From an uncultured bacterium (GTDB taxonomy: Bacteria > Oederibacteriota > PGYV01 > CAWJRG01): a stretch of 64,000 nt of DNA. The position numbers and the translations under genes were made by a program. Positions within the stretch are counted from its first letter, which is position 1. Every line of letters starts with the position of its first letter. The stretch is taken from NCBI GenBank assembly GCA_963845185.1, contig CAWJRG010000005.1:160001-224000 (forward strand), in the 5' to 3' direction. The notes beneath the pieces were generated by a model, which saw nothing but the letters and a program-made list of their open reading frames with translations, ran no database searches and was not told the DNA's origin. Below, piece after piece: positions 86 through 26,349 of this stretch.

Positions 86-2341
86 CTAGAACTTAACTAC
101 TACTTTCGCGTCGACTTCCTGCACTCCGTAACTGTTCGCGCTGTCCGTATGGTCTGTGATTTTGCTGAGCGTATAGGACAATCCTAATGTGGCCGGTTTG
201 GCTATTTTATATTCTACGCCGGCGCCGTAACTCAGGATGTCCATATTGAAGTCATTCAGGACCATTGGGACTGTGACATTCTGGCTCGTAAAGCAGTTAT
301 AGTATATCTGGCCGCCGTAAGCCCCTGTACCCAAATCAAAATACTCATGCCCGCTGAAAGCTATGTTCCTGAGGCCTATCGAGAGTGTAATTTTTCTCAT
401 CATAACATAATTCAATCCCAAATCAAATATGTTTGACGTAAGCAGAACATTTGAGCTGTTGTCCGTCTCCTCATTTTTATAGCCTGTCAGCAGGGATAAA
501 TCGTCGCCCAAATTGATTTTCACTCCTCCTTCGGTAACCGCGAAATTCCTCGGCTGTTCCTGGTTGTTTACTATTATATCAGTAACTATTTCCGACAGCA
601 TCTGGTATTTCACGTAAGGCTGGATAAAATCATCGAGGTAATCGCCGCTTAATTTTATAGTAATACCCTGCCTGTTTGGCGTGGCGTCGCCGTAAGGGGT
701 CGAGTTATTTTCAAAGAAAGGATACGCCATCAGGTTTGAACCTATCGGGTTATAATTCGTGTATATCAGGTTGTTGTATCTTGTAAGCGGGTATATTTTT
801 CCTTTATTATCCTCGGTTGAGCCTCCGATTATGTAGGCGGCTTCAGGCATGGAAACGTTCCATGTATTGTTCTGCGTAAGGTAATACTGCCACGGGTTGT
901 TTATCTCGTCGTATATTCTCGACTGCGCTGCGTAAGCCGTGAAACTGTTGCCCACTTCCCTATAGCTTATATCAAGTTTCGTGCCGAAATAATCCGCTTC
1001 TATCCCTGCCTTAAGGGCGCTGTCTGTTAAATATGTATTCATCCAGACTTGCGCCGGGTTAAAATTTGCGTTTGCCAAGGGATTTGCAACGCAATAATTC
1101 GAAATTGCGTATTCGGCCTTAAGCTTTGCAATATTAAAAATATTTATCGAGCCGTCGGCCGATGTCACATAGTTATCGAGCGTCTGCGTGTTATAATCCG
1201 GACCTGTGTCCCTCGCGTCCTTGATTTCCACAAAATTCAGGCCTATGTTAAGCAAGTCCTTAAGTGTGCAGTCTGACGAAAGCCGCGCGGCTCCCATGTA
1301 CTGGTCGTGCGCGTATATATCGCCCGACGGCAGCACCCCACCCAGGTCCTCGCCAAACGGCAAATTGAGATATCCGCCGAAAAAGTTTTGCCCGAGCCTT
1401 GCGAACATTGCGTCAACTCCGACGTCAAGCGAACTAAAAAAATTGACTATTGTGCTGATTTTACCGCCTCCGACCGGCCACGAATTATCAATAAGATAAA
1501 GTTCTTTTTCGTTCATCGCCCTTTTATCGCTGAATATTTTTGCCTCAAAAGGCCTCTCGTCGTCCACTGCCCATATAGTAAAAGGCGTCAACTTTGCCTG
1601 GTAATCTCCCACTATGAACGATACCGGGTATTCGCCCTGTATAAAAAATCTCTTCAGGCCCACGATATCCTCCGAGCCCCAGAACCCGCCGAACATGTTC
1701 TCCATTCTGAAAGTCGCCTCAGAGTATAATTCCTTATTGGCGTGCAGGGAAAACATAAGGTCAATGTACTGGTTTATCGGCCTGTACCTGAGTGCGGCCA
1801 CGCTCGGCGTCGAGGTTGTGCCCAATGGTATTTTTTCAGCGTTCAAAAGCTGATTATCCAGGCCGTTTTTGCTGCCGAAAATCAGGGCGTCGGTCATGTA
1901 AGCCGCTGTTTCGCCGTTTATCCGCATGCCCATTGAGTTAAGCAGCTTGTCCTGCTTTGCCTCGAGCGCCTGCTTTTTTGCCTTAAGGTCGCCCAGCTCC
2001 TCTTCTATGGAGTCAAGCTTTTGCCCGACTGCCATCATGTCCGTCTGGTACGCCTTCACAAGGTTGTAAAGTTTGTCTATATATTCCTTGAGGCTTGCGT
2101 TTGACTCCGGGAATTTTTTCTCCTTTGCGGCAAGCATATTGTCGACGCCGTTGTTGATATAACCCACCATTTCTTCCCGCGTGAGCTGATCCTTATCCAG
2201 CGGCATCGTAATGACCTTCGCGTCCACCAGGGATTTTATGTCCTTATATGCCCAGTGGTCCTTGTCAATGACCTCGTCCGCGGCAAGTATAAAAACAGGC
2301 AAAAGCACAACCACCAAAGCGATAATAATTTTTTTCGACAT
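86..2341 (-). CDS. Outer-membrane beta-barrel protein with N-terminal SLH domain and coiled coil (OmpM-like architecture)
   Basis: Signal peptide; SLH motif DHWAYKDIKSLV...LTREEM; heptad region EELGDLKAKKQALEAKQDKL; amphipathic beta-strands; C-terminal Phe (VVVKF). Confidence 0.75.
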   Translation of the reverse strand: MSKKIIIALVVVLLPVFILAADEVIDKDHWAYKDIKSLVDAKVITMPLDKDQLTREEMVGYINNGVDNMLAAKEKKFPESNASLKEYIDKLYNLVKAYQTDMMAVGQKLDSIEEELGDLKAKKQALEAKQDKLLNSMGMRINGETAAYMTDALIFGSKNGLDNQLLNAEKIPLGTTSTPSVAALRYRPINQYIDLMFSLHANKELYSEATFRMENMFGGFWGSEDIVGLKRFFIQGEYPVSFIVGDYQAKLTPFTIWAVDDERPFEAKIFSDKRAMNEKELYLIDNSWPVGGGKISTIVNFFSSLDVGVDAMFARLGQNFFGGYLNLPFGEDLGGVLPSGDIYAHDQYMGAARLSSDCTLKDLLNIGLNFVEIKDARDTGPDYNTQTLDNYVTSADGSINIFNIAKLKAEYAISNYCVANPLANANFNPAQVWMNTYLTDSALKAGIEADYFGTKLDISYREVGNSFTAYAAQSRIYDEINNPWQYYLTQNNTWNVSMPEAAYIIGGSTEDNKGKIYPLTRYNNLIYTNYNPIGSNLMAYPFFENNSTPYGDATPNRQGITIKLSGDYLDDFIQPYVKYQMLSEIVTDIIVNNQEQPRNFAVTEGGVKINLGDDLSLLTGYKNEETDNSSNVLLTSNIFDLGLNYVMMRKITLSIGLRNIAFSGHEYFDLGTGAYGGQIYYNCFTSQNVTVPMVLNDFNMDILSYGAGVEYKIAKPATLGLSYTLSKITDHTDSANSYGVQEVDAKVVVKF

Positions 2342-2363
2342 TTAAATTACCTCCTGTATTATT

Positions 2364-4928
2364 TTAAAAAAAGTTTTTTAATTCCAGGTAAAGCTGCAGA
2401 CCGCTGAAATCATTCGCCGGCACTTCCCTGTCAAAATGCGCGAAATTTTTTACCCTCAAAAACACGGAAGTCCTCGGCGCAAAATCATAATCTATTCCCA
2501 CACCGTAAGCCTGGTCTGCGTAATCCAAGCCGTAATAGGGTCCATTCCAACTTAAGGCGGGGGTCGCTTGAGCTAAGTCCCACCTTTCCACATTGTTTGA
2601 AGTCCACCTTTCAAGGCCACCAAAAACCATTAAATTGATTTTTTTTGTAATATTATATACAAGGAACGACTGCACTATGCTCTGGCAAAAAATATTATTC
2701 GGGTCATAATCCACCATCAGATCTGCCCCGTTATAAAGTGTCGTTAGCTCCCCGTAAAGCTCAAAAAAAAGGTCATTTGGAATGCCTACAAGTTTGTTTA
2801 CAGCGTATCTTAATTCTGCCGAAGCGTTATTGTAATATTTCCTTGTCAGGGAGTCCGGATCAACGAGTTTCGTGACCATGTATTCCCTGTTTGTGAGCCA
2901 GGCATCCGTGACAAGCCCGCCCCTGCCTCCTGCGATTACACTGTTGACATTTGCTCCCGCACCGGAGGAATCAATACCATACCTGTTACCATTATACTCG
3001 TCATACCCGTAGTATGTGTCGTTATATCCCGGCGGTATCGCCGCTGCACCATAATTGCTGTAAAATTCGTGCCAGTATATGCCGCCGTTTAACCTGTTGC
3101 CCATGAGGAAATGCTCTCCATAAAACATGTTGCCTGTTTCCCTGATCTGCGCCGACGAGCCATAATTCAGAAGTAAAAAGCCGTTCGGCACGCTTATATT
3201 CGCGAATACATCAACCTTGTTCATATTATTATATAGTAAAGTCGGGTCTGCTGCGTATGTAATGCTGCTTATTTTCGGGGCAAAAGTCGGCGTCGTGTAA
3301 GTCCTGTAATTGGTGTCAATTACAGCAGCTGCTGTCGCCACATAGTCAGGGTCTATCCTTGTATATTTTATGGTTATTTTCACCTGTCTTGGCAAAAATG
3401 ACGGCGCAATTGACGCATACATCGCGTCTCCGACCTGCGTGAAAGCAGGCGGGTCTCCGTTTGGGAACACTGCATAAGAGTTGCCCGGCTCAGGTATCGG
3501 CAGCCTGCCGTTAAAATTGGATCTCTCAAACTCGCCTTTTATATCAAGGATATCAGTTATGCTCGTCTTCAAATCGCCTCCCATAATAGTTGCTGATTGT
3601 ATGTATCCATACGGCGTCGCAGGGAAACTGGAAGGGGCGTAAATCGGCAGACCATTATATACACCGGTATTTCCAACATTGATGTCCCCAGGCCCCGGAG
3701 CCATGGTCTGTACTTCACCCAGTTCGTTTGATGTGTTAAAAGCGTTCAATGATAATGCCGTGTTGCTGAGGAAAGGGAAATCCTGGAAGTGCGTGAACCT
3801 GCCGGCGAATTCATACAAATAGTGCTTGTCCCATCTCTCGTCGAATTTCTCCGCCTTGCCTCCCATGATTTTAAACTGGTCATTTCCGAAAAGGTTGAGG
3901 TTCACTATGTCAAGCCCGTAAAAACCGTGCTTTGACCATATATCCCCCCTTTTCTGGAACGAGTGCTCGAATATGTTTTCATAATGGCCCCTTGTGCTTT
4001 CTTCCGTGGTCGCGTAAACATCGCGGTCAAACGGCACAGGCCGCTCGGTCAGTATCTGTTTCATGACAAAAGGCGTCAGGTCTTCCCAGAAAAAACCGGT
4101 TGTTAACTGCCATTTATAAACGTTAAGGTTGATTGTATATGTGTCGAGAAACCTCGCGCCCGTGCCCCAGAACTCCGGCAAGGCAAAAGGTTTTGATGTG
4201 CCCTTTTCCTCCTCGTCACCCGGCTTTATAAAGTTAATATTCAACTTGAAATTGACGTCGTTCGAAATAAGCCCACCTGTCCACAGGGACATCATGGTGC
4301 CTCCAAGCGAGCCATGATTTATATCGCCGAGTGATGCACCATTGTTATGCTTGTCAGCTATGCCATAAGGACTGTAGTTATAGTTTGGCCCGTTGGATGA
4401 AATATCCTGCCATCTCGACTGCAGCATGCCCTGTATCTGGAAAGGCGGCATGCCGTGGAAAGTCGTCTTTTTATATTCCTGCTCTATATCATTAATTTCG
4501 TCGCTTAAGTCATTTATTGTTTGTTTATAGCTTGTAAGCTCAGGTGATTTTAATGCCGCCTCAAGCTTGTCTACGTCCTTATGCATCCCTGTAAGTTCGC
4601 TGTAAAACTTTGTTACGTATTTTTTAAGCATGTCAACATACGCGTAAATTTTGCCGCTGTCCATGCCTTCCTCAGGCGCTGCTACTTCTTCTGCCTGGGC
4701 AGTCACATTTGCCGCCGCTTCAACAATATACATGGCAGCCTCATATTTTGTAATAGCTCCGAACTTAAAATGGTCAGGGCTCACTGACTTTATAAGCCCG
4801 GAATTGGCCATGAAATACAGGTCTTGATAAATCTTGTCGTTTTGGGGGATTATTAACTGGTATTCGGATGCGATTGCCGCGGATGAGATTAGAGCAAACA
4901 TAACCATAAGGATAATATTTTTCTTCAT
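2364..4928 (-). CDS. Outer-membrane beta-barrel protein with degenerate SLH domain and coiled coil
   Basis: Signal peptide; KIYQDLYFMANSGLI...AITKYEAA SLH-like segment; coiled coil; C-terminal strand LYLELKNFF. Confidence 0.7.
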   Translation of the reverse strand: MKKNIILMVMFALISSAAIASEYQLIIPQNDKIYQDLYFMANSGLIKSVSPDHFKFGAITKYEAAMYIVEAAANVTAQAEEVAAPEEGMDSGKIYAYVDMLKKYVTKFYSELTGMHKDVDKLEAALKSPELTSYKQTINDLSDEINDIEQEYKKTTFHGMPPFQIQGMLQSRWQDISSNGPNYNYSPYGIADKHNNGASLGDINHGSLGGTMMSLWTGGLISNDVNFKLNINFIKPGDEEEKGTSKPFALPEFWGTGARFLDTYTINLNVYKWQLTTGFFWEDLTPFVMKQILTERPVPFDRDVYATTEESTRGHYENIFEHSFQKRGDIWSKHGFYGLDIVNLNLFGNDQFKIMGGKAEKFDERWDKHYLYEFAGRFTHFQDFPFLSNTALSLNAFNTSNELGEVQTMAPGPGDINVGNTGVYNGLPIYAPSSFPATPYGYIQSATIMGGDLKTSITDILDIKGEFERSNFNGRLPIPEPGNSYAVFPNGDPPAFTQVGDAMYASIAPSFLPRQVKITIKYTRIDPDYVATAAAVIDTNYRTYTTPTFAPKISSITYAADPTLLYNNMNKVDVFANISVPNGFLLLNYGSSAQIRETGNMFYGEHFLMGNRLNGGIYWHEFYSNYGAAAIPPGYNDTYYGYDEYNGNRYGIDSSGAGANVNSVIAGGRGGLVTDAWLTNREYMVTKLVDPDSLTRKYYNNASAELRYAVNKLVGIPNDLFFELYGELTTLYNGADLMVDYDPNNIFCQSIVQSFLVYNITKKINLMVFGGLERWTSNNVERWDLAQATPALSWNGPYYGLDYADQAYGVGIDYDFAPRTSVFLRVKNFAHFDREVPANDFSGLQLYLELKNFF

Positions 4929-4992: not shown

Positions 4993-5031
4993 AAAGTATT
5001 ATAGCAAACGACTTTCGTTTGTCAATACTTT
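4993..5031 (-). promoter_or_regulatory. Sigma70-type promoter of the SLH-barrel operon overlapped by an operator-like inverted repeat
   Basis: TTGACA (5025-5020), 16-nt spacer, TATAAT (5003-4998); IR CAAACGA-ctt-TCGTTTG flanked by AAAGTATT/AATACTTT. Confidence 0.65.
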
Positions 5032-5077
5032 TTTCCGGAAAAATTTAAAACAATTTTGTTGATAGGTTTTTCTTTAA

Positions 5078-7159
5078 CTATCGTAACAGCATAAATTCAT
5101 TTATATCGCAAACTGTTTCTATCCTGCCGTTTCTTTCGCGGTTTACAGTATAAAAATAGGTGCCGTTGCCTAAATCCTGCAAGTATTCTTTTACGTTTAT
5201 TTCCCTTGAGTTCCATCCCGCTTTAAAATCACCATTCCAGTAAAATTCACGGATTTTCCTAAAGGCAAAAGTATAAATATATATCCAGACTTTGCTCTCG
5301 TCCTCTTTGAGGTTGAATTTCACGGTCATATATGCGTCTTTGTTATAATTCACAGGGTTTGGGTAAACTGTTGTGTTTTTATTCGGTGGGCCCGGCGTGG
5401 GCGTTGGTGGGGGAATCGGCGTGGGAGTAGGAGGTATGGTGTTTGTCGCCGTAGGAATAAAATCCGGGGCTGCTGCCGCAAGCACAAAAACAAGCGGTGC
5501 CTCGTAGTTAATCGCGACTTCATTTGATGCCCACGAATCCTGCGAATCAATGTAACACTTGGCTGGTTTTGTGCCCTCATTTATAATAGTTTGAAGGGTC
5601 GGATCCCCTCCGCCCGAATTCGGCCCGCCTACAATTAATCCAGGGTATGGTGCTGTAATGCCGTCTGATGCGGATGCCCTGTGGTGCGGGTGCATAACGC
5701 AGTTTTCTCCTATCCCGGTAACATAACTTATGTCCATAGGGTTCCTTCCAAGCAAATAATGCGCGACTTCAATAGCCGCGCTCATATAGCCTGTATTGCC
5801 TGATACGTCCGCCTCGCATGCCAGTACAAGCGCTCTGTTTCCTGAAACTGCGTTCGACCCCCAATAAAATCCCCCAACCACTAAGGGATATTTATATCCG
5901 CTTGAATTTATATAATATACAACGCTGTCAGCGAAGTTCTTTAAATTTGTTTTTATCGCGTTTACTGTCGCAGTATCTTTTGCCGTCTGGGTGGTAAAAA
6001 TATATGAAAGCATACCCATCATCTGCACGTTGGGCCAACCCGGCTCGCTTATGCTGAAATTTGTATAATTGGACATCACGTAATTGTTGTACACTGCCCC
6101 GCCTGTCGTGGAAAAAAGTTCTGCTGCTGCCCATAAACGCTCGTCGGAATCGTTTGTATCGCCGTAGCCGCCTGTGCCGGTGTCTGGAGGGTTTGTGAAT
6201 CCGCCCGGCGGGACTATTGAAGGGTTGTTTGTTAAGTACTGCCACGCGCTTTCCGCTGCCGCAAGGCATTGCTGTGAAAAAGCCGCGTCATACGGCGCGT
6301 AAATCCTGGCTGCCATGGCCATTACTGCTGCGAAGTCGCCTGTGGCGCATGAAGATTCCTGGTATATGTAAAGCTGCGAATTATCCTGGTTCGGCATTTC
6401 AAAAGGAGCGAATTGCAGGCTTGTTTCCTTGAAATAAACCCCTCCGTCATTGGGATTCTGCATTTTTAAAAGCCAGCCAAGCTCCCATCTGATTTCATTA
6501 AGCACGTCGGGTGTGGAATTCCCGCTTTCAGGTATTAACGGAAGCTTATATAATGAAAGCTTTGAAGCGTACCTTTCATACATTAAAAGAAGTTCGCCTG
6601 CGGAAAAAGCGCCGTTTACCACGTATTTCCCGAAATCACCAGCGTCATGCCAACCGCCTGTTGCGCTTATAGTACCTGACTGGCCTGTGGACTGGTGAAA
6701 ATCCGCATCACTCAGATGGCATGCGGGATACCCCCATCCGCCGTCAGGGTCTGATACCGTTATGCCGCAGCGCTGTAAATAATAACTTTCCATTGTTTTA
6801 ATAAATGCGCCGTAAAAAATTGTGTCGTTCACGTTAAATTCGTATGACTGCCCCACGCCCGGGACATCAATATAGTAATATCCCTGTATTGTCAGGGATG
6901 AAAAATCAGCCGTATAGCAATTGTCACCTGCCGTAAGGTCATATATTGGCCCTGTCGCGCTGCCTGAAAAAACCGTGCTTTTATCCGAAACATTTCTTAC
7001 GTAAAATGACGTGCATGGTGTTGTTATAATCACGTATTTGTTGTCAGTTGCCCTGTAGCCAGCCATGTCGACTTTTATGCTGTTTGAGGCTGCATACGCA
7101 AAACCTGCTGATAAAAGAATAATGCTGCTCAGTAAAATTATTTTTCCGTAATTTTTCAC
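5078..7159 (-). CDS. Glycoside hydrolase family 9 (endoglucanase-like) with N-terminal Ig domain, Pro/Thr linker and T9SS-like CTD
   Basis: GGWHDAGDFGKY, HPHHR and DSWASNEVAINY GH9 motifs; signal peptide; PTPTP linker; VYPNP...GTYFY tail. Confidence 0.92.
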   Translation of the reverse strand: MKNYGKIILLSSIILLSAGFAYAASNSIKVDMAGYRATDNKYVIITTPCTSFYVRNVSDKSTVFSGSATGPIYDLTAGDNCYTADFSSLTIQGYYYIDVPGVGQSYEFNVNDTIFYGAFIKTMESYYLQRCGITVSDPDGGWGYPACHLSDADFHQSTGQSGTISATGGWHDAGDFGKYVVNGAFSAGELLLMYERYASKLSLYKLPLIPESGNSTPDVLNEIRWELGWLLKMQNPNDGGVYFKETSLQFAPFEMPNQDNSQLYIYQESSCATGDFAAVMAMAARIYAPYDAAFSQQCLAAAESAWQYLTNNPSIVPPGGFTNPPDTGTGGYGDTNDSDERLWAAAELFSTTGGAVYNNYVMSNYTNFSISEPGWPNVQMMGMLSYIFTTQTAKDTATVNAIKTNLKNFADSVVYYINSSGYKYPLVVGGFYWGSNAVSGNRALVLACEADVSGNTGYMSAAIEVAHYLLGRNPMDISYVTGIGENCVMHPHHRASASDGITAPYPGLIVGGPNSGGGDPTLQTIINEGTKPAKCYIDSQDSWASNEVAINYEAPLVFVLAAAAPDFIPTATNTIPPTPTPIPPPTPTPGPPNKNTTVYPNPVNYNKDAYMTVKFNLKEDESKVWIYIYTFAFRKIREFYWNGDFKAGWNSREINVKEYLQDLGNGTYFYTVNRERNGRIETVCDINEFMLLR

Positions 7160-7316: not shown

Positions 7317-10300
7317 TTATTTCAATATAATAATCTTGTCCACTTTAGATCTTACCGTCACTCCGCCTTTTTCCGCAATTACCACATAGTAATATGCTCC
7401 CTCGCTGAGGTTGTAAAGATCCTTAATGTCAAATGTCAAAGTCGCTACTCCATTTTCTACTGACGGTCCATCGAATTCTTTTTGCATTATCAGCCTGTAC
7501 GCAGTTGTATATATTTTCACTTTCATGCTGTCTATATTATCCGTTGTTACGTTAACTCGGATATTTAACGGCCACACTGTAGGATTAATCGGGTTCGGAT
7601 ACGGCAGTACCGTCCCTACTGTAAGGACACCTGTAGGCACAGCTATCGGCGTCATTGTCGCTGTTGATAACGCAGGGGTCGGTGTCTTGGTAGCTGACGA
7701 ACATGAGCATGCGTTACTCATTGCCGATGCACTTGTCACTGTCACTCCATCAACCGAGTCCGTACCGCTTACCGTCGCGTTGAATGTTACGGTGCCTGTC
7801 GTAGATGACACTGTATATACCCACGTAAACGACGCTTGTGCATTTTTCGCCATTGTCGCATTTGCAGGGCTTGGCCCGCTTACCAGCGTAGCTGAACCGC
7901 CGCCGCCGGACGTCAATACCAGCGATGACGGCGCTACGTTATTTGCTGTGTTCGCTCCTGTGTTCTGAACCTGCATAACTATTGTTATATTCTGGCCGTT
8001 TACAGCGCTTGATGGCGATATTGTTAAACTGTTTATCACAAGGTTTATAGCCACTGTAGGTGTGGCTGTAAGCGTATTTGTAATCGCCGGCGTTACTGTC
8101 ACTGTCGCTGTAGCGCATGTGAACAGGTTGCTCGCCGCTGATGCGACTATCTCAGTCACTCCGTCAACCGCGTCTGTGCCGCTTACTGTCCCGTTAAATG
8201 TTATATTGTTGGCTATAACAACCGCATATACCCAAGTGAATGAGTCTGATGAATTCCCGTTTATTGTCGCATTTGCAGGGCTTGGCCCGCTTACCAGCGT
8301 GGCTGCTCCTCCGCCGGATTGCGATAACACTGACGGCGCCACATTATCCGCTGTGTTCGCGCCTGTATTTGCAACAAGCATCACTACCGTTATGTACTGC
8401 CCGGTTGCAGCGCTTCCCGGCGATACAGTCAAACTTGCCGCAAGGTTTATGGCTATTGTCGGCGTTATTGTCGGAGTGTTTGTCATTGTCGAACCAGGCG
8501 GCACTGTCATTGTAATGGTATAAGTCGGCGTTGCTGTTATTGTCGGTGTTGCTGTCTGTGTCCCTGTTGATGTTGACGTGCTTGTCAATGTCGGCGGAAC
8601 CGTCGTATTCGTGCCTGTCGCGCTGGGTGTTACTGTATATGTTGCTGTGTTTACTACCTGCGTTGTAACTGTCACTGTCGGAACATTGCAGTATATTTCA
8701 AAGTTGTCTATCCATAGAGTTACGCTTGCCTGCGGCGCTGCTGTCGTCTGGAATTGCACCTCTTTCGCGTTTTGCAATACTGTGTTCAGCGGCTCTGCTG
8801 TTCCCCATCCTGCCTGTTTAAACGACGTGAATGGTATTGTTATAAGCGTCCATCCTGCCGGCGCTGTAAACGTATATGCGTAACTATCGTACCCGTCAAG
8901 CTCGGTACCGCTTGAGTTCGTGTACGGTATCTTTATTTCATATGTTGCTCCGTCTCCCTTTGTTTCAAACCTTATCCCTATTGCTCCGCTTATGTCGGTT
9001 GTCTGATATGTCGGCGAACCTGCTTTCCCATTCAACTGCGTCCCCATGCCTATGTACCCGCCTGCTGCCGCTACAGACCCGGTCATAAGCGCTGCGCAGT
9101 CCGCTCCAGTGCTAAACCCGGGCGAACTCATTACAAACGGACCTGATGCTGTCGAAGGCCATACTGTAGATGCTGCGTCGTTATATGTGTACCAGTATCC
9201 GCCCCACGCGTTCTGATTACTGCAACTTGCCATTGTATCCAACTGGCATACGGGTTGAGGTGTATTTGTCGCTGTCGGCCCTGGCGGCGGCGTATTCGTC
9301 GCTGTTGCTCCGCAGCCGTATATCTCAAAGTTATCTACCCATAAATCTACGCTCGCCAGAGGCGCTGCCGTTGTCTGGAACTGCACCTCTTTTGCGTTTT
9401 GCAAAACTGTAAGCAGTGCAACTGCTGTTCCCCATCCTGCCTGTTTCAACGATGAGAACGGCACTGTTACCAAAGTCCAGCCTGCTGGCGCTGTAAACGT
9501 ATACGCGTAACTGTCGTACCCGTCAAGCTCGGTACCGCTTGAGTTCGTGTACGGTATCTTTATTTCATATGTTGCTCCGTCTCCCTTTACATAAAACCTT
9601 ATACCTATTGCTCCGCTTAAATCTGTCACCTGGTATGTCGGCGACCCTGCGTTCGCGTTCAGCTGCATTCCCATGCCTATCTGTCCGCCTGCATCCACTG
9701 TACCTGTCAGCTGTGCAGCGCAGTCCGTGCCATTGTCATACCCGGGCGAACTCATTACAAAAGCTCCTGCTCCTGACGGCCATACTGTAGATCCTGCGTC
9801 GTTATATGTGTACCAGTATCCGCCCCATGCGTCCTGATTACTGCAATTTGCTATTTTATCAACCTGGCAAAGGGAAGATGGCACTGTTGGTGTGAATGTC
9901 GCTGTCGGTGCAGTCGGCAAAGTTGGTGTATATGTAGGTGTCGCGCATGTGAAAGCATTGCTGGCGGCCGATGTACTTGTCATAACAACTCCGTCACCCG
10001 CGTCTGTGCCGCTTGCCGTCCCGTTGAATGTTATATTACTGCATATTACAATATTATATACCCATGTGAATGATGCTGACGCATTTGAGCCTATTGTCGC
10101 GCTTGCAGGGCTTGGCCCGCTTACCAGCGTGGCCGCTCCTCCGCCGGATTGCGACAATGCTGACGGCGCTACGTTATTAGCCGTGCCTGTGCCTGTGTTT
10201 TGCACCTGCATCACTACCGTTATATCCTGACCTGTTCCAACGCTTGCAGGCGATACTGTTATATTTGCCACAAGGTCTATCGCTATTGTCGGGGTTGCTG

Positions 10301-16400: not shown

Positions 16401-19400
16401 TGCTCCTGATGGCCATACCGTCGATCCAGCGTCGTTATACGTGTACCAGTAACCGCCCCATGCGTCCTGGTTACTGCAATTTACCATTTTATCCGTCTGG
16501 CACAGGGAGGTTGGCACTATTGACGTGTATGTCGCTGTCGGCACGAATACAGTTGATGTAAATGTCGCTGTATTGACCGGCGTGTCTGTATATGTAATAG
16601 GCGCCGTATTTGTAAGCGTCGCTGTATCGGACGGTGTATCTGTCTTTGTATTCACCGGCGTAGCCGTATACGTAAATGTCGATGTATTGGTTGACGTTAC
16701 AGTTCTGGAAGGAGTTCCTGTGTATGTTGGCGTAATCGTAGCTGATATTATCACTACAGTATAAGTCATAGTTATTGTGTATGTCGGCGTATTTGTTCCT
16801 GTATATGTAGCTGTAATTGTCCTTGTTCCTGTCGGTGTTGCTGTAATTGATGGTGTAGTTGTCTGGGTGAAAGACGACGTTGCCACGGGCGTGTTTGTCG
16901 ATGTATTCACCGGCGTGTTTGTCCACGTCAAAGTAACTGTGTATGTTGGCGTGTTTGTCGCTGTATTTGTCCTTGTTACTGTCGGCGATACTGTATATGT
17001 TGGAGTAATTGTTGCTGATACTATTATTGTTGTAAATGTCATTGTTATTGTGTATGTAGGTGTCGGCGTATTTGTCGGCGTATTTGTCAGCGTATTTGTC
17101 GGCGTATTTGTGCCTGTGTTTGTCCTTGTCACCGTAAGCGAAGGCGTCCCTGTGTTTGTAAATGTAGGCGCAGTCGTGTTTGTTCCTGTCGCTGTTAAAG
17201 TTGCAGTGTTCTGTTGCGTGCTTGTCCACGTAAGAGTTACTGTGTATGTAGGAGTATTTGTTGCCGTATTTGTCCTCGTTGCTGTTGATGACGGCGTGTT
17301 TGTCGGCGATATGGTGTATGTAGGAGTAATCGTCGCTGAAATTATCACTACTGTAAAAGTCATTGTTATTGTGTATGTCGGAGTCTGCGTGCCTGTCGGT
17401 GTATTTGTCGGTGTATTTGTGCCTGTATTTGTCCTTGTCGCCGTAAGCGAAGGCGTCCCCGTCGACGTTAAAGTTGCAGTGTTCTGTAATGTATTTGTCC
17501 ACGTTAAAGTAACTGTATATGTCGGCGTGTTTGTCGCTGTGTTTGTCCTTGTTCCTGTAGACGTCGGCGTGCTTGTCCCTGTCGATGTTAAAGTCACTGT
17601 GTTCTGAGGTGTGCTTGTCCACGTAAGAGTTACTGTATATGTAGGAGTATTTGTTGCCGTATTTGTCCTCGTTCCCGTAAATGTCGGTGTGTTTGTTACT
17701 GTAATTGTCGGCGATACCGTGTATGTAGGAGTAATAGTAGCTGATATTATCACTACTGTAAAAGTCATCGTTATCGTGTATGTTGGCGTCTGCGTGCCTG
17801 TCGGTGAGTTTGTCGGCGTATTTGTGCCTGTGTTTGTCCTTGTAGCCGTAAACGTAGGCGTACCTGTAGGTGTGCCCGTAGGTGTACTTGTCGGCGTATC
17901 TGAGACTGTATTCACCGGTGTGTTTGTCAATGTCAGGGTATATGTATATGTATACGTAAATGTCCTTGTAAAAGTGAACGAAGGAGTAATTGATGGGGTG
18001 TTTGTAGCTGTATTCACCGGCGTGTTTGTCCACGTCAAAGTTACTGTATATGTGTATGTAGACGTATATGTAGGCGTATTTGTTCCTGTATTTGTCCTTG
18101 TTGCTGTAAGCGTTGGCGTATTTGTAACCGTATTTGCCGGCGTGTTTGTCCACGTCAGAGTTACTGTATATGTATATGTCGGCGTATCTGTAGGCGTATT
18201 TGTCCCTGTATTTGTCCTTGTCGCTGTACTTGACATCGATGGTGATTGCGTAGGCGTGTTTGTTAATGTATTCGCCGGCGTGTTTGTCCACGTCAAAGTT
18301 ACTGTATATGTATATGTAAACGTATCTGTAGGCGTATTTATCCCTGTGTTTGTCCTTGTTGCTGTAAGCGTAGACGTATTTGTAGGTGTATTTGTCGAAG
18401 TATATGTCGCTGTATTTACCGGCGTATTTGTGGCTGTATTCACCGGTGTATTTGTCCACGTCAAAGTTAATGTATATGTAGACGTGCGTGTACTTGTTAT
18501 CGTAGGCGTAACCGTCACTGATGGCGTACTTGTCACTGTAGATGTTAAAGTTATTGTGTTCTGTGGCGTGTTTGTCCATGTTAGAGTTACTGTATATGTA
18601 GACGTATTTGTACCTGTATTTGTCCTTGTCGCTGTAGACGTAGGTGTGGCCGTGCTTGTATATGTAGGCGTATTTGTACCTGTGTTTGTCCTTGTCGCCG
18701 TAAACGTAGACGTAGGCGTTGACGTATATGTGCTCGTACTGGGTAACGGCGTATTTGTTATTGTCGGTGAAGGTGTTGGAGTTATTGTCATTGTAGGTAT
18801 TGCAGGCGGCGGCGTCAGTGTCGGCGTTACTGTCTTCGTATTTATCGGCGTAGGCGTCCATCCCAGGCTTGGATAGAATCCTACATCGTCTATTGATAAA
18901 TCTACTGCATGCCCGTAATCATACGTCTGCCAGTTTATCTGCAGCAGATGCTGCAATACCAGCGTCAAACTTACTTTTGTACCCCACCCTGTTTCCTGCG
19001 TCAGGTCTGAAAATGGTATCTGCATCTGCGTCCACGTGGTCGGCGGTATAAATGTATATTTGAAGTCGTTATACCCTGTGTTTGTTACTGAGTTCGGCAT
19101 AAACCTCAGGCTGTACTGGTGCGTCCCGTCTCCTTTTATCGCCATTACAAATCCGCTGAATGCGCTTACATCCCTTGTCGTGGATGTTACCCTGTCTACG
19201 TTTGTCCCTAATCCAACGCACGGATAATATATAGTCCCTGTACATGCAGAATTGTTGCAACTGGTCGAACAGTATGTCGTGTATACATATCCCGTTATCC
19301 TGGCGCAATATGCCGTACCATACGGGCTGCCTGGCCAACCTGGCGCTGTCATTACAAACGTTGTCTGTGCCTTCGGCCACACTGTCGTTGTATCATTCGC

Positions 19401-20729
19401 GCATCCTGTCGTACCATAATACGAGTACCATGCGCCTCCCCAGTTATTTATTGCATCCCCGTCTTCAAATGTATCCAGCAATGCCGCCGACGGCGTCTGC
19501 GTTATTGTCGGCGTAAATGTCGGCGTTCCTCCCTGTAAATTTAATAAGTTCCAATAATTCCCTGTCATCAACAGAAGCGATAATATCTGCCATGAGTCGT
19601 TATAATATGAATTCGGCGCAAAACTCCCTGTCTCTGTGCAGTAATTATTTAACGTTGTCTGGTAACCATTATAATTCCTCATAAACGAACATCCTATCGG
19701 GCCGGTGAAGCATGCGTTGTGATTGGTTCCTGTCACGGCCCCGCTTGATACTACATAGCCGTCCTCTATTGCCGTGGCTGCTATTGTGTTAAAGTGTACG
19801 GATATATACTGCAGCTCTGTCGCTGAGTCTACTCCATTCCATGTATAATATAACTCGAACCTCCATGGCACCCTGCATGAATTATATAAATAATCCAGCC
19901 CATTGCATGAGCCGTTTCCTCCGCTGTTGCACGGGTCTCCGTTCTCAACTGCTCCGTTTGCCAGGCATGAATCTCCTATTAGCCCGTTTGCCGTGCTACG
20001 GCATCCTCCTCCTGCCCATGTCGTCATTGCTGTTAACACAGCGTTCCATTTTGCAGAATTTGTCGTGTCTATGTTTGCCCATTCTGCGTAATATGCCGGA
20101 TCCCAGTATGACGGATAATACCATGTGTTCCATTGGTCCCCCGGATTTACTGCCGACGTGCTTGAATCTATGTCGTGTGACAATACATACCCTTCCTCTG
20201 TCATTGCCGTCGCTCTTATGTTTGTATCATCTACTCCAGGTGTCGGGCCAAACTGCCGCGCCGCCATCAAAACTGAAAACGCTATGTCTTCGTCCGCGTC
20301 TGTCGCTGAATCTGCAGGGCTTGCTTTATTGCTTCCATCTGAATTCAGGTTCCATACCATTAGAGTGTTTGAGTCCAGATGCAACTGCATATAACTCCAT
20401 AAATTGTTGTATAATGCCGCGTCATTAAAATATACCGCCATCAACATACCGTATCCCATTCCTTCTGATACCGTGTCATTGCTCTGGTCCGGCCTCTCTA
20501 CTCTATCGTATCCGGATGCCGCCACAACGTAATGCGTCTTCCACGTGTTGTACAGATTCAGCAGGTTTGAGTTGCTGTAACTTGTCGAGTATATGCCGTA
20601 TGTATATGCCTTGCTTAATGGAAATGGAAAGTTGGCGTTTGTCTGTGTGATTATGTTTGCGCCAAATACCCCGCTGCTCAGAATGATTATAAAAAGGATC
20701 GCAATTGCCGTTATTTTTCTTATTTTCAT
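13437..20729 (-). CDS. Multimodular secreted GH8 paralogue (2430 aa): GH8, CBM11-like, ~790-aa Thr stalk, 2x CBM11-like, 3x Ig-like, T9SS-like CTD
   Basis: First ~640 aa essentially identical to 7317..13016; PYPNP...KIIILK tail. Confidence 0.88.
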
Positions 20730-20818
20730 AACTTTGCCTCCCGCTTTCTATGTTTTTATATATATCGATATTCCTATTTCTTCCTTCTTTTTAGACAACT
20801 TCTCCCCAAAAAAGTTCC
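18798..20818. repeat. ~2.0-kb near-identical direct repeat, copy 2
   Basis: Matches 11085-13105. Confidence 0.92.
20791..20818 (-). promoter_or_regulatory. ECF (RpoE-like) promoter upstream of GH8 gene 2
   Basis: GGAACT-TTTTTGGGGAGAAGTT-GTCTAA; hexamers identical to 13078-13105 while the spacer has diverged. Confidence 0.65.
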
Positions 20819-21184: not shown

Positions 21185-22158
21185 TTATCTTTTTACTACT
21201 ATATAACCTTTAACAACCCTGCTCCCTATCTGCATATATACAAAATATACATCATTTGCAACTGCTGCATTACTGTCATTTCTTCCGTACCAATAAGCTT
21301 CATAATATCCCGGGTCTCATCCTGGTCCATCAATACACTTACTGGCCTCATTGCTTTGTCATATATAATCACTTTAACCCTTGCATTTTCCTCAACCTTA
21401 ACCCTGATTATTGCCGCATCCATTTTCGACGGATTAATAACATTGTTTCCCACTATTGCTTTTTGCTGCTCAAGCAAACAACCATACGGGCAATTTTTGC
21501 CCTTGTCATTGTTATCGGCGGCTGTCACTTTTGAATCTGTTGACGAAACACTGCCTTGCATCCGGTTTACCGCATAAGCCTGTTGCGCAGGTTTATTAAC
21601 TGCCTGGCTGTTAACTGCAATATTATCACCGCCGCTGTTATTATTTATCGCTGCTGCCTGGACTTCCTTTTTTTCCGCAACAACTTTATTGTTTATTTCC
21701 TGCTTAATTTCCTGTTTTGCCGGTTCTTTCATCATTGCCTGCACAACAGGTTTTATTTTTTTGTTGTTAACAGCCGTAACTGATTTATGCTCCACCTTCT
21801 TTTCAACAAAATTAATCTTTTCATTTATATTATTTAAAGGCATCTGCATAATGAATACTGCGATTATTAGAATTACTGCAAAACTGACCGCGTAATTAAA
21901 TACAGGGAAAATGCTTAAGCCGGGTTTTTCTATTCCTGTAATATTGGCCATTATTTTGCCCTCTATATAATAGGGCACATCCACTGGCAAAGAATTCATT
22001 AGTTTCCTGTATTTCTGCATATCGGAGTAGTAATTTCGGCATTCGGAACATTCAGCTTTATGCTTATTTAATACTCCGTAATCTTCAATTTCTGCTCCGT
22101 TTTCCAGGTCTTTCATTATCATCTCTCGGTACTTTTTGCATTCCTTCCTGACTTTCAT
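21185..22158 (-). CDS. Zinc-finger (ZAS-type) transmembrane anti-sigma factor with C-terminal FlgD/CTD-like domain; single-base frameshift near 21310
   Basis: HxxxCxxC (HKAECSEC); one TM helix; adding one C in ACCCGGG gives ...DETPGYYEAYWYGRNDSNAAVANDVYFVYMQIGSRVVKGYIVVKR* ending at 21185; immediately downstream of the ECF sigma gene. Confidence 0.75.
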
Positions 22159-22225: not shown

Positions 22226-22801
22226 TTAAAAAATTTCATCTTTTTTTAACATATCCCTAAGATTATCTCTGGCCCTGAATAATTTGCTTTTTACAGCTGA
22301 TACTGATAATTTCATTATTTTTGAGATATCCTCGTAAGAAAGAGCATTTATATCCCGCATTATTAAAATGTTTTTCTGCTCGCTTGTAAGTTCGCTTATT
22401 CTTTTATATATCATCTTTCTCTTTTCGTTGGTGATTAAAATCGAATCGGGCTTTTTCTCTTCCTTGTCTTTTATTTCTAACTGTTTATTTATCTCTTCAT
22501 CGCCAGGGTAAATGTCGTCCATTATAGGCGCGCGTTGCCTTTGAAGCTGTTTTATTTTATTTTTGCATACATTTACAGTTATCCGGTAAATCCATGTGCT
22601 GATTTTGGATTCGCCCCTGAAACTTTTTATATTGTTATATACATTTAAGAATATTTCCTGGGTTGCGTCCTCTGCGTCCTGCTGATTTCTAAGGTATGTA
22701 TAAGAGTGATTATATACCACCCTCTTATAAGTTTGGATTATTTCCCTGAAAGCATTCGTGTCTCCTTTTTTAATTTTTTTAATTATTTCTTTCTCATCCA
22801 T
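22226..22801 (-). CDS. ECF sigma-70 factor (RpoE/SigW-like)
   Basis: Region 2 DAEDATQEIF...STWIYRITVN; region 4 LSYEDISKIMKLSVSAVKSKLFRAR. Confidence 0.93.
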   Translation of the reverse strand: MDEKEIIKKIKKGDTNAFREIIQTYKRVVYNHSYTYLRNQQDAEDATQEIFLNVYNNIKSFRGESKISTWIYRITVNVCKNKIKQLQRQRAPIMDDIYPGDEEINKQLEIKDKEEKKPDSILITNEKRKMIYKRISELTSEQKNILIMRDINALSYEDISKIMKLSVSAVKSKLFRARDNLRDMLKKDEIF

Positions 22802-22879
22802 TTATACTCTCCGTTTTTACCATGCTGTTATAATATATAGAAAATATGCCCTAAAAATGTTTCTAAACTATATGCATCT

Positions 22880-23806
22880 TTAAAATTCCGCCTTGATTGT
22901 AATCCTATGTTCATTATCCGATATAAAAAACGGCTTATAAGCGTAATCAAGCGTAAAATACTGCCAGTTAATTCCTAAGCCTACGGCCAAATTTCCTTCA
23001 TCCCCGCCCAGAACATAACCATACCTGAATGTAAGAAAGTTTAAATATTTTACTTCCAACCCCAGGGCCGTTTCCGCGCTTTCAGCCTCATTAAGATAAA
23101 ATCTTTCTTCGATATAAAGTGAAGCACTGTATTGATCCCTGTTGCTGTATATCAGCATGCCGTAACCGCCCCTTGCCAAAATCGGTAAAAGTATCTTATC
23201 CTGCCAGTACTCGCTTGTTATCCCTATATTTTCAAGCAAAAGTCCCAGGTTGTAATTCCTTTCCTGATTTTTGTATAATAAACCTATATTACAGCTTGCT
23301 CCTAAAGTTTGATTAGTATAAAGCATGCTGCGCAGTAATTTAAGATTTATCCCGGCGGATATATTGCCTGTCAGGTCATTCGCGTACATTGCGCCTAAGA
23401 CCATATCTGAATTATCAATGTTTCCAATGGGATTGCCAAATTGATCCGTCTTTGCCAGCTGGTCGTTCGCGTCATACATGAATGAAAACCCGATTGCGCC
23501 GTAATTTTCCTGCGGCTGGAGATACATTATCTGCTCGTAATGCGTGCTGAAAACAGAAACATAATTGGAAAAAATTGCGTATTTGTTTTTTATACCAGCG
23601 AGCGCAGCCGGGTCGACATCAGCTGCCCCAGGCTCCGCGTAATAAGGCGTATATATCCCTCCCAATGCCGTTTCCCTTGCAGGAATATCCACAAGTAAAA
23701 ATGACGATGCTGTTTCCCCTGCGGCATATAACTTATAATACATTGCTAAAGAAAAAAAAATAAAAAAGCAAAATATATATATGTTTTTCCCGTTTACCTT
23801 TTGCAT
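22880..23806 (-). CDS. PorV/PorQ-like (UPF0164) outer-membrane beta-barrel
   Basis: SFLLVDIPARETALGG N-terminal motif, DPAALA, C-terminal DYAY...HRITIKAEF. Confidence 0.75.
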   Translation of the reverse strand: MQKVNGKNIYIFCFFIFFSLAMYYKLYAAGETASSFLLVDIPARETALGGIYTPYYAEPGAADVDPAALAGIKNKYAIFSNYVSVFSTHYEQIMYLQPQENYGAIGFSFMYDANDQLAKTDQFGNPIGNIDNSDMVLGAMYANDLTGNISAGINLKLLRSMLYTNQTLGASCNIGLLYKNQERNYNLGLLLENIGITSEYWQDKILLPILARGGYGMLIYSNRDQYSASLYIEERFYLNEAESAETALGLEVKYLNFLTFRYGYVLGGDEGNLAVGLGINWQYFTLDYAYKPFFISDNEHRITIKAEF

Positions 23807-23815
23807 TTTACATCT

Positions 23816-24814
23816 TTATGCAGAGTCTCTTATAATCAAAGTGGGTTCAAATGTAATTACCCTGCTAGTGTCGCTGGATTTTTTTTCAATGATATTTAAT
23901 AGCATATCCAACGCCTGCATTCCCATTTCCGCTATAGGCTGTTTTATTGTAGTTAAAGCCGGTGTTGTAAGGGTTGCCATGTATAAATCATCGAAACCCA
24001 CAAGCGACATGTCATCGGGTATCCTGATATTATGCGCCTTGGCTTCGGCCATTATACCCATAGCGCAAACATCTCCTGCAGCAGAAAAAACCGCATCAAT
24101 TTTCCTTCCGTCATTAACAATCTTTCGCATTACTTCCTTGCCTTCCTCAAAAGAATAATGAATAATTCTAATTATATTATCCTCATTTACCTGCATGCCG
24201 TTATCACGAAGCGCTTTTTCATATCCTGCCTGCCTCTCGTAGGCATTGGCAGCGACTTTTTGGCCTAAAACTATCGCTATATTTTTACGGCCTTTCTTAA
24301 TAAGATAATCTGTCGCGATATATCCGCCCTTTTCATTATCAACTTTAACGCAAGGCGCTCCTTCAGTCACCTGCTCGATAAGCACAACAGGCATTTCCTG
24401 ATTTTTAAACTCATCAATAAGATGTTTGTCAAAAGTGGCAGTCATGCTTAAGACCCCGTCTACCCTTCTCTCATAGAATATCTTTTTCAAAATTTCCCTT
24501 TCATTTTCAGCCGAACCGCGAGTGGAATACAGGCTCAAATTATATTTTGTATCGCTAAGCCGCTGTTCCACGCCTTTTACAAGTTCAAGCGAAAAGACAG
24601 ATGCAAAAGAGGTTGCTACCAGGCATATATTTTCCGTCTTGCCCATAACCAGGCTTCTTCCTATATAATTAGGATGATAGTTCATTTCCTGTATGGCTTT
24701 TAGAACTTTTTCCCTGGTTGCTTCGCTTATCTTTTTATTGTTATTTATTACCATGGAAACAGTGGCAGCCGTAACCCCTACTTTGCTCGCTATGTCTTTG
24801 ATTGTTACCCTCAT
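23816..24814 (-). CDS. LacI-family transcriptional regulator
   Basis: TIKDIASKVGVTAATVS HTH; IPDDMSLVGFDD...PALTTI sugar-binding domain. Confidence 0.95.
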   Translation of the reverse strand: MRVTIKDIASKVGVTAATVSMVINNNKKISEATREKVLKAIQEMNYHPNYIGRSLVMGKTENICLVATSFASVFSLELVKGVEQRLSDTKYNLSLYSTRGSAENEREILKKIFYERRVDGVLSMTATFDKHLIDEFKNQEMPVVLIEQVTEGAPCVKVDNEKGGYIATDYLIKKGRKNIAIVLGQKVAANAYERQAGYEKALRDNGMQVNEDNIIRIIHYSFEEGKEVMRKIVNDGRKIDAVFSAAGDVCAMGIMAEAKAHNIRIPDDMSLVGFDDLYMATLTTPALTTIKQPIAEMGMQALDMLLNIIEKKSSDTSRVITFEPTLIIRDSA

Positions 24815-24836
24815 TTGTTCGCTCCTTTTATTTAGT

Positions 24837-24868
24837 GTAAGGGGAACGGCCTTGTTCCGTTCCCCGCA
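24837..24868. repeat. REP-like hairpin upstream of lacI
   Basis: GTAA-GGGGAACGG-ccttgtt-CCGTTCCCC-GCA. Confidence 0.45.
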
Positions 24869-24930
24869 TTGTTGTTTTAATCGTCTGTATATGGTTTATT
24901 TCGTAAAAAATTATAATAAATCTATAAAAA

Positions 24931-26349
24931 CTATTTTTGCTGTTGCTGTTGTCCGGCTGCAGGCGTCTGTTGCTGCTGTTGCCCTGCTGCAGGAACTTGT
25001 TGTTGCTGTTCCTGTCCCTGTTGCACCCCTAAATCCGCGCCCGATTTAATACGGTCAATAAAATTCTTGAGCTGCAGATTTGTCGGATCGCATTCCAGTG
25101 CTTTGTTATATGCCTGCATGGCAAGGTCATTTTTCCCGGTATTTAAAAAACACGCGCCAATGCCTATATAAGCCGATGAGTAATTCCTGTTTCTTTTCAA
25201 GCACTCCTTGAATTGATCCATGGCCTCAGAATACTTTCTATCAGAGAGAAACGTGTATCCTTTTTTGTAATATTCTTTTGCCAGGGCAACATCCTCTTGC
25301 TGAGTTCCTTGAAAAATTCCGAACATCATTCCCGAGACTGATATTCTGTGTGCCAGGCCCAAATCGCCGTAAGGTGTTAATGAGTAATCTACATCAAAGC
25401 TCATATCCTTGATTGCAGTCAGTTTATATCCCACCCCGCCGGTAAAACCGTTCAGTCCGCCAAGGTCGTAGCCGAATTTATACCCACCCCTTAAGGCTAC
25501 CGTATGGTATTTGTTCAATACCCAGTATTTTTCAACTCCGACATTCAGCCTTGCAAGCTCTTCCTCCGGATAATAAATCACGTCAATATCCGCGGCTGCA
25601 TTGTTGTCTAATAATTTAAAATATCCTTCGTCTGTAAACGGCAACATAATATTTTCAAGCGCAAATCTGTAACCAATGCCAAACCTTATGGTAAGCGGAA
25701 GATCAGGCCTGTTGGTAGACACCCCGAAATTTTGCACGCTTATACCCAAAGAATAATTTTCATATTTCGGCTTGTAATAGGCATCCAGGCTTACGGCAAA
25801 CCCGCCTCCCTGGTCCGTGTATATCTGGTCGTTTAATATGCTTGTGCTTATTCCAAGTGATAAATCCGACAAAAATGAGTTATCACCCAAAAAATCCGAC
25901 AACTTTTTTGCAAAAGCTAAATCAATGTCCATATCCGACGCATTTGCTTTTTCGTTGGTCGCTACATAATTTCCCTTAGAGTCTTCGCTTGTCACGTCGA
26001 CACTGCCGTATAAAAAAATTCCGGATAACTCCACTGTTCCAATACCTGTAATAGGCAAGGCATAAGCTCCGTACTCATCGTTTACATCCAGCAGCCATGC
26101 CGTGTGCATAAGGCAAAAATTATTCTGCGTGAGCTGGGTCAGTCCTGCTGCGTTCCAGTATATGGCGTTTACGTCATCCGCAATTCCTGTAAATGCTTCG
26201 CCCATGCCGCACTGTCTCGCGCCTTCAGGAATTTTTGTGAAATTCTCGCTTGTTACTCCTGCGCCTTCAGGGAAAATTGAGGAGGTAAAGAAAAAAGATA
26301 TTAACAACGTTGGTAAAATAAATAAAATAATTTTTTTCATATTTTTCAA
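24931..26349 (-). CDS. PorV/PorQ-like beta-barrel with C-terminal TPR repeats and Gln-rich tail
   Basis: GARQCGMGEAFTGIADDVNAIYWNAAGL motif; DYSLTPYGDLGLAHRIS; TPR helices; QQQQ tail. Confidence 0.8.
   Translation of the reverse strand: MKNMKKIILFILPTLLISFFFTSSIFPEGAGVTSENFTKIPEGARQCGMGEAFTGIADDVNAIYWNAAGLTQLTQNNFCLMHTAWLLDVNDEYGAYALPITGIGTVELSGIFLYGSVDVTSEDSKGNYVATNEKANASDMDIDLAFAKKLSDFLGDNSFLSDLSLGISTSILNDQIYTDQGGGFAVSLDAYYKPKYENYSLGISVQNFGVSTNRPDLPLTIRFGIGYRFALENIMLPFTDEGYFKLLDNNAAADIDVIYYPEEELARLNVGVEKYWVLNKYHTVALRGGYKFGYDLGGLNGFTGGVGYKLTAIKDMSFDVDYSLTPYGDLGLAHRISVSGMMFGIFQGTQQEDVALAKEYYKKGYTFLSDRKYSEAMDQFKECLKRNRNYSSAYIGIGACFLNTGKNDLAMQAYNKALECDPTNLQLKNFIDRIKSGADLGVQQGQEQQQQVPAAGQQQQQTPAAGQQQQQK

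Follow-up and report, generated by a model that had tools for sequence, protein, structure and literature searches.

How cellulose is taken up in the Cytophaga manner, without SusC/D proteins or a cellulosome, is an open question. The gene cluster implicated, chu_1276-1280 of Cytophaga hutchinsonii, encodes two outer-membrane proteins, two carbohydrate-binding module (CBM)-like or unknown proteins and an endoglucanase, with no SusD. It is described as an "atypical PUL" (polysaccharide utilisation locus) required for cellulose use, with orthologous clusters in two close relatives only, i.e., in three Cytophagales (PMC12016534). The same question is raised by a locus within a 64,000-nucleotide stretch of DNA from an uncultured bacterium, a relative of Goldbacteria (FCPU426). 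This stretch, "the window" below, corresponds to G000:C5:160001-224000, where G000 is the genome (99.4% complete) and C5 its contig. Ten co-directional open reading frames (ORFs) are present on the minus strand at 86..26349, just as the initial annotation described them. We consider it likely that they belong to a Goldbacteria version of the chu_1276-1280 cellulose-uptake locus, combining predicted secreted GH8 and GH9 glucanases with paralogous outer-membrane barrels and CBM-like lipoproteins.

The barrel pair and its Cytophaga relatives

The two barrel genes are the last ones of the row.

86..2341, minus strand: barrel B, 751 aa, assigned to the CHU_1277 family; signal peptide, SLH-like (S-layer homology) head, coiled coil, predicted plug-less barrel of about 22 strands
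2364..4928, minus strand: barrel A, 854 aa, likely CHU_1276 counterpart judging from gene order; head and stalk as in B, predicted plug-less 22-strand barrel

Pfam, NCBIfam and PDB sequence searches gave no family and no close solved structure for either barrel. A narrower first homologue search with barrel B returned Goldbacteria-type proteins only, and relatives from Bacteroidota surfaced only with a broader, phylum-wide profile. This profile matched 2299 cluster representatives with E values up to 0.001, of which 718 have 1e-10 or lower. Proteins of about 570 aa that lack head and stalk are numerous among the 150 top matches, with Bacteroidota matches reaching E values down to 1e-77. The few clusters that carry a name are labelled Cytophagaceae, Chitinophagaceae or Bacteroidetes.

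One relative found in this way, P0135, leads to C. hutchinsonii. It matches the barrel-B profile with an E value of 1e-69 and barrel B of the window itself in BLASTP with an E value of 5e-23 (23% identity over 582 columns). The CHU_1277 sequence is printed in the supplement of PMC5553014 up to about 360 residues. In this printed part FGGFYG, GDID, WRLQG and GAQTRR stand in register with the barrel-B family consensus, and 48 of 72 residues are identical to P0135 in one ungapped stretch (an unscored count made by eye on a partial sequence). The barrel-B alignment and that of the short family agree over 494 columns with an hhalign probability of 100%. By these alignments barrel B is a member of the CHU_1277 family, which does not support the earlier view that the Cytophaga system has a different architecture; the layout, too, is that of chu_1276-1280. 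Barrels A and B are distant paralogues (hhalign probability 95.7%, E 1e-8), and gene order makes A the likely counterpart of CHU_1276.

The short Bacteroidota-type family was examined in six metagenome loci. A homologue of A (50-80 bits) lies directly upstream of the B homologue in all four loci with upstream DNA, and a lipoprotein gene follows B in five out of five. Loci L139, L140 and L142 contain the barrel pair, a lipoprotein, GH3 and GH16-like genes; this suggests a beta-1,3-glucan version of the barrel-pair locus. In the literature listed by our search, CHU_1276 and CHU_1277 are named in Cytophaga papers only, and no link between the Goldbacteria locus and the Cytophaga system was found, though the primary papers on CHU_1276, CHU_1277 and the extracytoplasmic function (ECF) sigma factor lay outside that search.

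In the AlphaFold models of both proteins, a signal helix leads into a helix-loop-helix head, which is followed by a coiled coil and then by a barrel lacking an N-terminal plug. Counted by eye, the model of A (mean pLDDT, i.e., predicted local distance difference test, 74.4) has 22 long strands and that of B (59.5) has 21 clear strands and a weak one. Foldseek and VIA fold searches retrieved generic barrels only (template-modelling score, TM, 0.2-0.3, Z<=16), with about 400 barrel residues aligning to the 22-strand SusC barrel. Both proteins end in a C-terminal Phe, like OmpM/SlpA-type barrels. After the Goldbacteria cluster, their nearest neighbours in a language-model atlas are SLH+barrel proteins (0.97 and 0.95). 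The barrels had initially been described as SLH-tethered. Going by the predicted helix-loop-helix and coiled coil and by the atlas neighbours, their N-termini are SLH-like only: the PF00395 threshold was reached neither in the two window barrels nor in any of the 22 barrel sequences and fragments scanned, N-terminal fragments included. Since the CsaB pyruvyl transferase was not found in the genome either, wall binding by the stalks is only a prediction.

Conservation of the locus and a second barrel pair

Co-occurrence of the locus genes in relatives, which the initial annotation expected, is strong. Barrel B has matches in 21 of 23 genomes of the same order and in 15 of 37 other genomes of the phylum; the 22 without a match come from other classes. 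In 31 of the 34 loci compared, A is the immediate upstream neighbour of B; the remaining three are interrupted by contig ends, and three of the 34 are arranged A>B>B. Loci L054, L057 and L058 from other classes of the phylum have three barrels in this order, flanked by CBM-like lipoproteins, with no hydrolase seen alongside. The stalk is absent from some members of the phylum as well as from the Bacteroidota homologues.

In cellulose-type loci the barrels are followed by a CBM9 gene and then by CBM-like lipoprotein genes in 15 out of 15 cases with downstream DNA, while a GH9, GH8 or secretion-tagged gene precedes A wherever an upstream gene is present (10/10). At the other end, the order PorV>ECF>anti-sigma is kept in all 22 same-order loci, with a LacI gene ahead of it in 20, and a GH8 gene starts next after the anti-sigma gene in 12 same-order loci (1.5-kb flanks). 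The complete chain is found on one contig in the relatives G009, G014, G019 and G021. Because the compared genomes are kin and not independent, this conservation shows inheritance of a unit, not its repeated origin.

The locus turned out to be longer than the 26-kb region first delimited (86..26349). It extends beyond the window start into G000:C5:151096-160015, which codes for a CBM9 protein and two CBM11-like lipoproteins. A barrel-like protein of 470 aa, a tagged protein with carboxypeptidase-regulatory repeats and a third member of the PorV family are encoded there too. On the other side, window positions 28928-33896 hold genes for an HMGL-like synthase, isocitrate dehydrogenase-like and malate dehydrogenase-like proteins and two fumarase genes, resembling ordinary central metabolism.

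A second A>B pair is present in this genome at C10:493008-497673, followed by genes for a small lipoprotein, GH62, GH44, GH29, GH35 and a sugar-binding lipoprotein. The wider region G000:C10:478295-497673 (L090) includes a GH74-like gene and is likely a xyloglucan locus without SusC/D. Six loci in relatives resemble this second pair, and carry BNR-propeller, GH2, GH31 or GH29 genes (three of the six were scanned); the BNR-propeller genes we take to be GH74-like. In a quick tree (a fuller tree search is incomplete), seven barrels of xyloglucan-type loci and eight of cellulose-type loci fall on separate branches with support of 99 and 94. One apparent uptake pair per glycan is the pattern of PULs, and this second pair amid xyloglucan-type enzymes is our main argument against a housekeeping porin.

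Predicted secreted enzymes, their probable export and control

The other genes and regulatory sites of the window part of the locus are as follows.

4998..5043, minus strand: sigma-70-type promoter (TTGACA-N16-TATAAT) serving the barrel operon; adjoining it upstream, a palindrome centred on CG, a candidate LacI operator
5078..7159, minus strand: GH9 endoglucanase with N-terminal Ig domain, Pro/Thr linker and C-terminal secretion tag (PF00759 E 3e-96; PF02927; tag profile E 3e-29)
7317..13016, minus strand: shorter GH8, 1899 aa, with three CBM11-like domains, Thr-rich stalks (18% Thr) and C-terminal tag, by profile matches
13080..13105, minus strand: ECF-type promoter motif GGAACT-N-TTGTCT, 63 nt upstream of the shorter GH8
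13437..20729, minus strand: longer GH8, 2430 aa, of the same design by profile matches, 25% Thr
20793..20818, minus strand: ECF-type promoter motif, 63 nt upstream of the longer GH8
21185..22158, minus strand: anti-sigma factor with zinc-binding HxxxCxxC head, membrane helix, low-complexity linker and C-terminal secretion-tag domain
22226..22801, minus strand: ECF sigma factor (Pfam and NCBIfam)
22880..23806, minus strand: PorV/PorQ-family barrel, 308 aa, candidate partner of the anti-sigma tag (NF033709, 111 bits, cut-off 90)
23816..24814, minus strand: LacI-family regulator (Pfam), upstream of the PorV gene in 20/22 loci
24931..26349, minus strand: PorV/PorQ-family barrel with C-terminal tetratricopeptide (TPR) repeats, 472 aa (NF033709, 129 bits, cut-off 90)

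Pfam and NCBIfam matches bear out the first identification of the GH9, the two giant GH8-CBM enzymes, the ECF and LacI regulators and both PorV-like barrels. DAGD and the Glu of NEVAINY, which we take to be the GH9 catalytic motifs, are retained in the translation. Each GH8 carries three CBM11/CIA30-like domains according to Pfam. The two GH8 genes are 98.4% identical across the first 1950 nt, and tandem GH8s also occur in G019 and G021. CelA is the closest solved structure; its acid Glu is kept and Asn replaces its base Asp, as in 15 of 18 aligned GH8s. This arrangement is presumably the GH8b pattern. An acidic inserted loop was considered as a substitute base and dropped, as the loop is not conserved.

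All three enzymes had been credited with xYPNP-type C-terminal domains. Their tails do match a profile derived from tails of this same genome (E 3e-29 to 4e-35), but neither TIGR04183 nor PF18962 at E<=0.01; two other members of the self-built profile in the window exceed the TIGR04183 cut-off. Genome-wide, 155 ORFs are tagged C-terminally and 38 genes belong to the PorV family. Directly behind a tagged gene lie 24 of these 38, compared with 5% of genes being tagged. The 308-aa PorV gene is located directly upstream of the ECF gene in 22 out of 22 loci, and the PorV-TPR gene has the same position in G009, G014 and G021. Elsewhere in the window (53527-57602), a tagged cargo gene is followed directly by another PorV-TPR gene. 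PorV-family barrels fused to OmpA/Pal-like wall-binding domains were seen at C10:689147, C10:781060, C9:786483, C6:114190 and C5:773336; Pal itself gave no match over the cut-off in the genome.

A search for parts of a type IX secretion system (T9SS) was partly successful. It yielded, besides the tags and the PorV family, two C25 peptidases, which are candidates for a PorU sortase, and an SprA-like protein of 2145 aa on contig C9, which TIGR04189 matches in collinear pieces (E 9e-20). Of 61 genomes, 60 have a homologue of this SprA-like protein; its gene lies behind barrel B at a distance of about 22 kb in G019 and 11 kb in G020. GldM, on the other hand, had no match in the genome, GldL had none in 31 genomes, yet control genomes gave no match either, and GldK had partial generic matches only. 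In G000 the SprA-like gene and a gene for a tagged fn3 protein lie in the block C9:165291-191457 (L087, L088) together with tagged cargo, a PorV fusion, two TPR proteins, LacI, O-antigen-ligase-like and GT9-like genes; the same block stands behind the barrel locus in G019 and G020. Cargo-specific shuttles similar to the cargo-linked PorV genes here are described for T9SS of Flavobacterium johnsoniae (PMC12618676). Elusimicrobia are not mentioned in the T9SS papers that were found. Since tags and PorV genes occur throughout the genome and the SprA-like pore is encoded on another contig, export appears to serve the whole genome and the locus is, by this gene distribution, not the self-contained module that had been proposed.

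Control of the locus appears to be split. In its strict form, the sigma-70 pattern precedes barrel A in 7 of 13 loci (mean of shuffled sequences 0.64), and it can be made out by eye in the remaining six; the CG-centred palindrome is present in 12 of 13 (shuffle mean 2.75; the pattern was picked after seeing the sequences). The ECF-type motif was absent upstream of barrel A in all 17 loci and in the window, by a sequence test only. The idea that the ECF sigma factor drives the barrel operon was dropped, as no ECF-type motif is found there and a sigma-70 promoter stands in its place. The ECF control initially foreseen for the module would be limited to the cargo side, where the motif precedes both GH8 genes. 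Genome-wide, it is located before 9 of 153 tagged genes and 15 of 2508 others (p 3e-6). Untagged lipoprotein-like genes sharing the motif were noted at G000:C5:333420, 339350, 433649 and 602319 and at C9:755971.

The ECF sigma factor has close orthologues in 22 of 23 same-order genomes and a partial match in the 23rd. The anti-sigma factor of the annotated pair is present too, but its ORF is frameshifted near 21310, the rest of the C-terminal domain continuing in another frame and ending at 21185. Other split genes nearby suggest an assembly indel. Overlapping or split ORFs, seemingly single genes broken by indels, were seen at window positions 33907-37692 and 44722-52483 and at G000:C5:152064-155745, the last of which is one ORF in the relative G018; G000 may contain assembly frameshift errors. 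The tag domain is present in 20 of 20 complete anti-sigma orthologues, compared with none of seven anti-sigma factors from other classes. A second cassette of ECF, tag-bearing anti-sigma and PorV genes (G000:C10:233121-235697) is located ahead of tagged cargo including a GH8 paralogue, and its ECF gene has the ECF-type motif upstream of itself. The literature searched gave no match for a tag-bearing (FlgD Ig) anti-sigma factor with an ECF sigma factor, and none that deals with outer membrane, cellulose and secretion in FCPU426.

Proposed mechanism, rival explanations and known systems

What we infer on import, wall binding and regulation from sequence can be put together as follows. Enzymes with T9SS-type tags, as recognised by profile, would be exported via the single SprA-like pore, carried by barrels of the PorV family. 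At the cell surface, their Thr-rich stalks and CBM11-like domains would keep them on cellulose or beta-glucan. Homology and gene context suggest that barrels A and B, with the CBM9 protein and the lipoproteins, capture oligosaccharides and pass them to the periplasm without TonB, the SLH-like stalks presumably tethering the barrels to the wall. A GH94 phosphorylase, whose gene is present elsewhere in the genome, may finish the sugars. Sigma-70 and LacI would control the barrel operon and the ECF sigma factor the GH8 cargo, while the tag-bearing anti-sigma factor may report on the export route.

Several observations weigh against a Goldbacteria version of the Cytophaga locus or against parts of this scheme. 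The CHU_1277 comparison was made by eye on a partial sequence, and the pairing of A with CHU_1276 comes from gene order. The six Bacteroidota-type loci represent a sister sub-branch with GH3 neighbours, not the Cytophaga locus itself, and Goldbacteria lipoprotein profiles do not reach significance against the lipoproteins of Bacteroidota (best E 0.04). The SprA-like match reaches 69 bits against a family cut-off of 200. Sub-threshold PF00395 scores and the lack of CsaB speak against wall tethering. The GH8s have Asn at the usual base position, and of 21 Goldbacteria candidates assayed in PMC7031533, three were active, all of them GH9. The ECF-type motif lies behind the anti-sigma gene in only 2 of 20 loci (shuffle mean 1.0) and, in relatives, ahead of four out of nine further cargo genes examined; moreover, the genome has four ECF sigma factors that could read it.

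The transport role of the Cytophaga barrels is itself proposed, not proven, and their chu_1276 and chu_1277 mutants also lose cell-associated surface beta-glucosidase activity. This would suit an A/B pair that acts as a surface scaffold positioning CBM lipoproteins and glucanases, with sugars entering via other porins, and so would the reports that the presence of CHU_1279 matters more than its cellulose binding (PMC12016534) and the long loops that could fill the lumen in both barrel models. We find such a scaffold unlikely, as a chu_1276 mutant has a glucose-uptake phenotype, as cited in PMC12016534, and the paralogous pairs track different substrates and adjoin a sugar-binding lipoprotein. 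The head-stalk-barrel layout, the SLH+barrel clusters nearest in the atlas, SlpA as the top Foldseek match (with a TM of 0.2, however), the near-consensus sigma-70 promoter and the absence of Pal over the cut-off could also be read as signs that the barrels are housekeeping wall tethers of OmpM/SlpA type and general porins, whose place among cellulase genes is incidental. The initial annotation had named this as an outcome that would undo it. We judge it improbable: the barrels have about 22 strands and OmpM has 16, they always form an ordered A>B pair with CBM-like neighbours, a second pair accompanies xyloglucan-type enzymes, the stalk is missing from Bacteroidota homologues and some phylum members, barrel B is unmatched in 22 of 37 genomes from other classes, and CsaB is lacking.

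The original idea of a self-contained, categorically new module for secretion, display, import and regulation, unrelated to the Cytophaga system, could draw on the single-contig chains of G009, G014, G019 and G021, on the SprA-like genes close behind barrel B in G019 and G020, and on barrels without a family-level Pfam match or a close solved structure. We see hardly any room for it, as it is already largely refuted by the placement of barrel B in the CHU_1277 family; the genome-wide spread of the export parts and the split of the locus between two promoter types also count against it. A bolder form of the Cytophaga-type reading seems doubtful to us when taken as a whole: that A and B together form a two-barrel glucan channel that is tethered to the wall, works without TonB and has CBM lipoproteins as its cap, a second general machine for glycan uptake found across phyla and re-used for cellulose and xyloglucan, and that the tag-bearing anti-sigma factor also interacts with its own PorV barrel and with the motor-less SprA pore, export activity thereby switching on the enzyme genes as a FlgM-like checkpoint of type IX-like kind.

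A Goldbacteria version of chu_1276-1280 would be of interest for several reasons. The barrel family of Cytophaga recurs in a distant phylum as a pair of fixed order, next to cellulases in one locus and xyloglucan-type enzymes in another, which suggests a general importer, and such distant pairs supply conserved residues and natural substrate variants. It also offers a first concrete export-and-uptake route for cellulolytic Goldbacteria. The order-conserved tag-bearing anti-sigma factor would be a new way to couple enzyme production to secretion.

Among known systems, cellulosomes have cohesins and dockerins, which are lacking here. As first annotated, there is no cohesin, dockerin or SusD: a profile search found none anywhere in the genome, and the eight matches to TonB-dependent barrels all lie outside the locus. 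SusC/SusD PULs likewise combine a barrel with glycan-binding lipoproteins, hydrolases and regulators and are repeated with different enzymes per glycan, but here two different barrels occur with no plug, no TonB-receptor family match and no SusD. OmpM/SlpA proteins share the signal peptide, SLH-like head, coiled-coil stalk and C-terminal barrel ending in Phe (PMC10628300; bioRxiv 10.1101/2021.05.31.446380); OmpM is a trimeric porin of 16 strands as against about 22 predicted here, and the fixed A>B pair, the sub-threshold SLH head and the missing CsaB are further differences. OmpM has been reported to be absent from Gracilicutes.

The cellulolytic Goldbacteria of PMC7031533 have GH8, GH9, many CBM11 domains and a cellobiose phosphorylase, as found here; export and uptake are undescribed there, and the main text mentions neither T9SS nor outer membrane proteins. 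With the T9SS of Bacteroidota the genome shares a single giant SprA-like barrel, beta-sandwich C-terminal tags, PorV-family barrels next to cargo and two C25 peptidases. Differences are the lack of GldM and GldL matches, a generic GldK, an SprA-like protein far below the cut-off, a PorV family of 38 paralogues where type A tags otherwise have a single shuttle, and a tag fused to an anti-sigma factor.

The closest likeness is to the Cytophaga atypical PUL. Both have two outer-membrane proteins followed by CBM-like surface proteins, an adjoining endoglucanase gene, no SusD, T9SS-type export of large GH8/GH9 enzymes in the same cell and an ECF sigma factor involved (PMC12016534). The present locus lies in another phylum, its barrels bear an SLH-like head and coiled-coil stalk, its lipoproteins are CBM11-like and not detectably homologous, a CBM9 protein is added and the enzymes carry CBMs. 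There, the ECF sigma factor CHU_3097 controls chu_1276 (PMC11611037), whereas the barrel operon described here is headed by a sigma-70 promoter with a candidate site for LacI. The locus is not a cellulosome, a SusC/D locus or an OmpM; it likely works like the Cytophaga atypical PUL, with which it shares at least one barrel family, and its stalks, different lipoproteins, split regulation and motor-less export make it a variant of that system.

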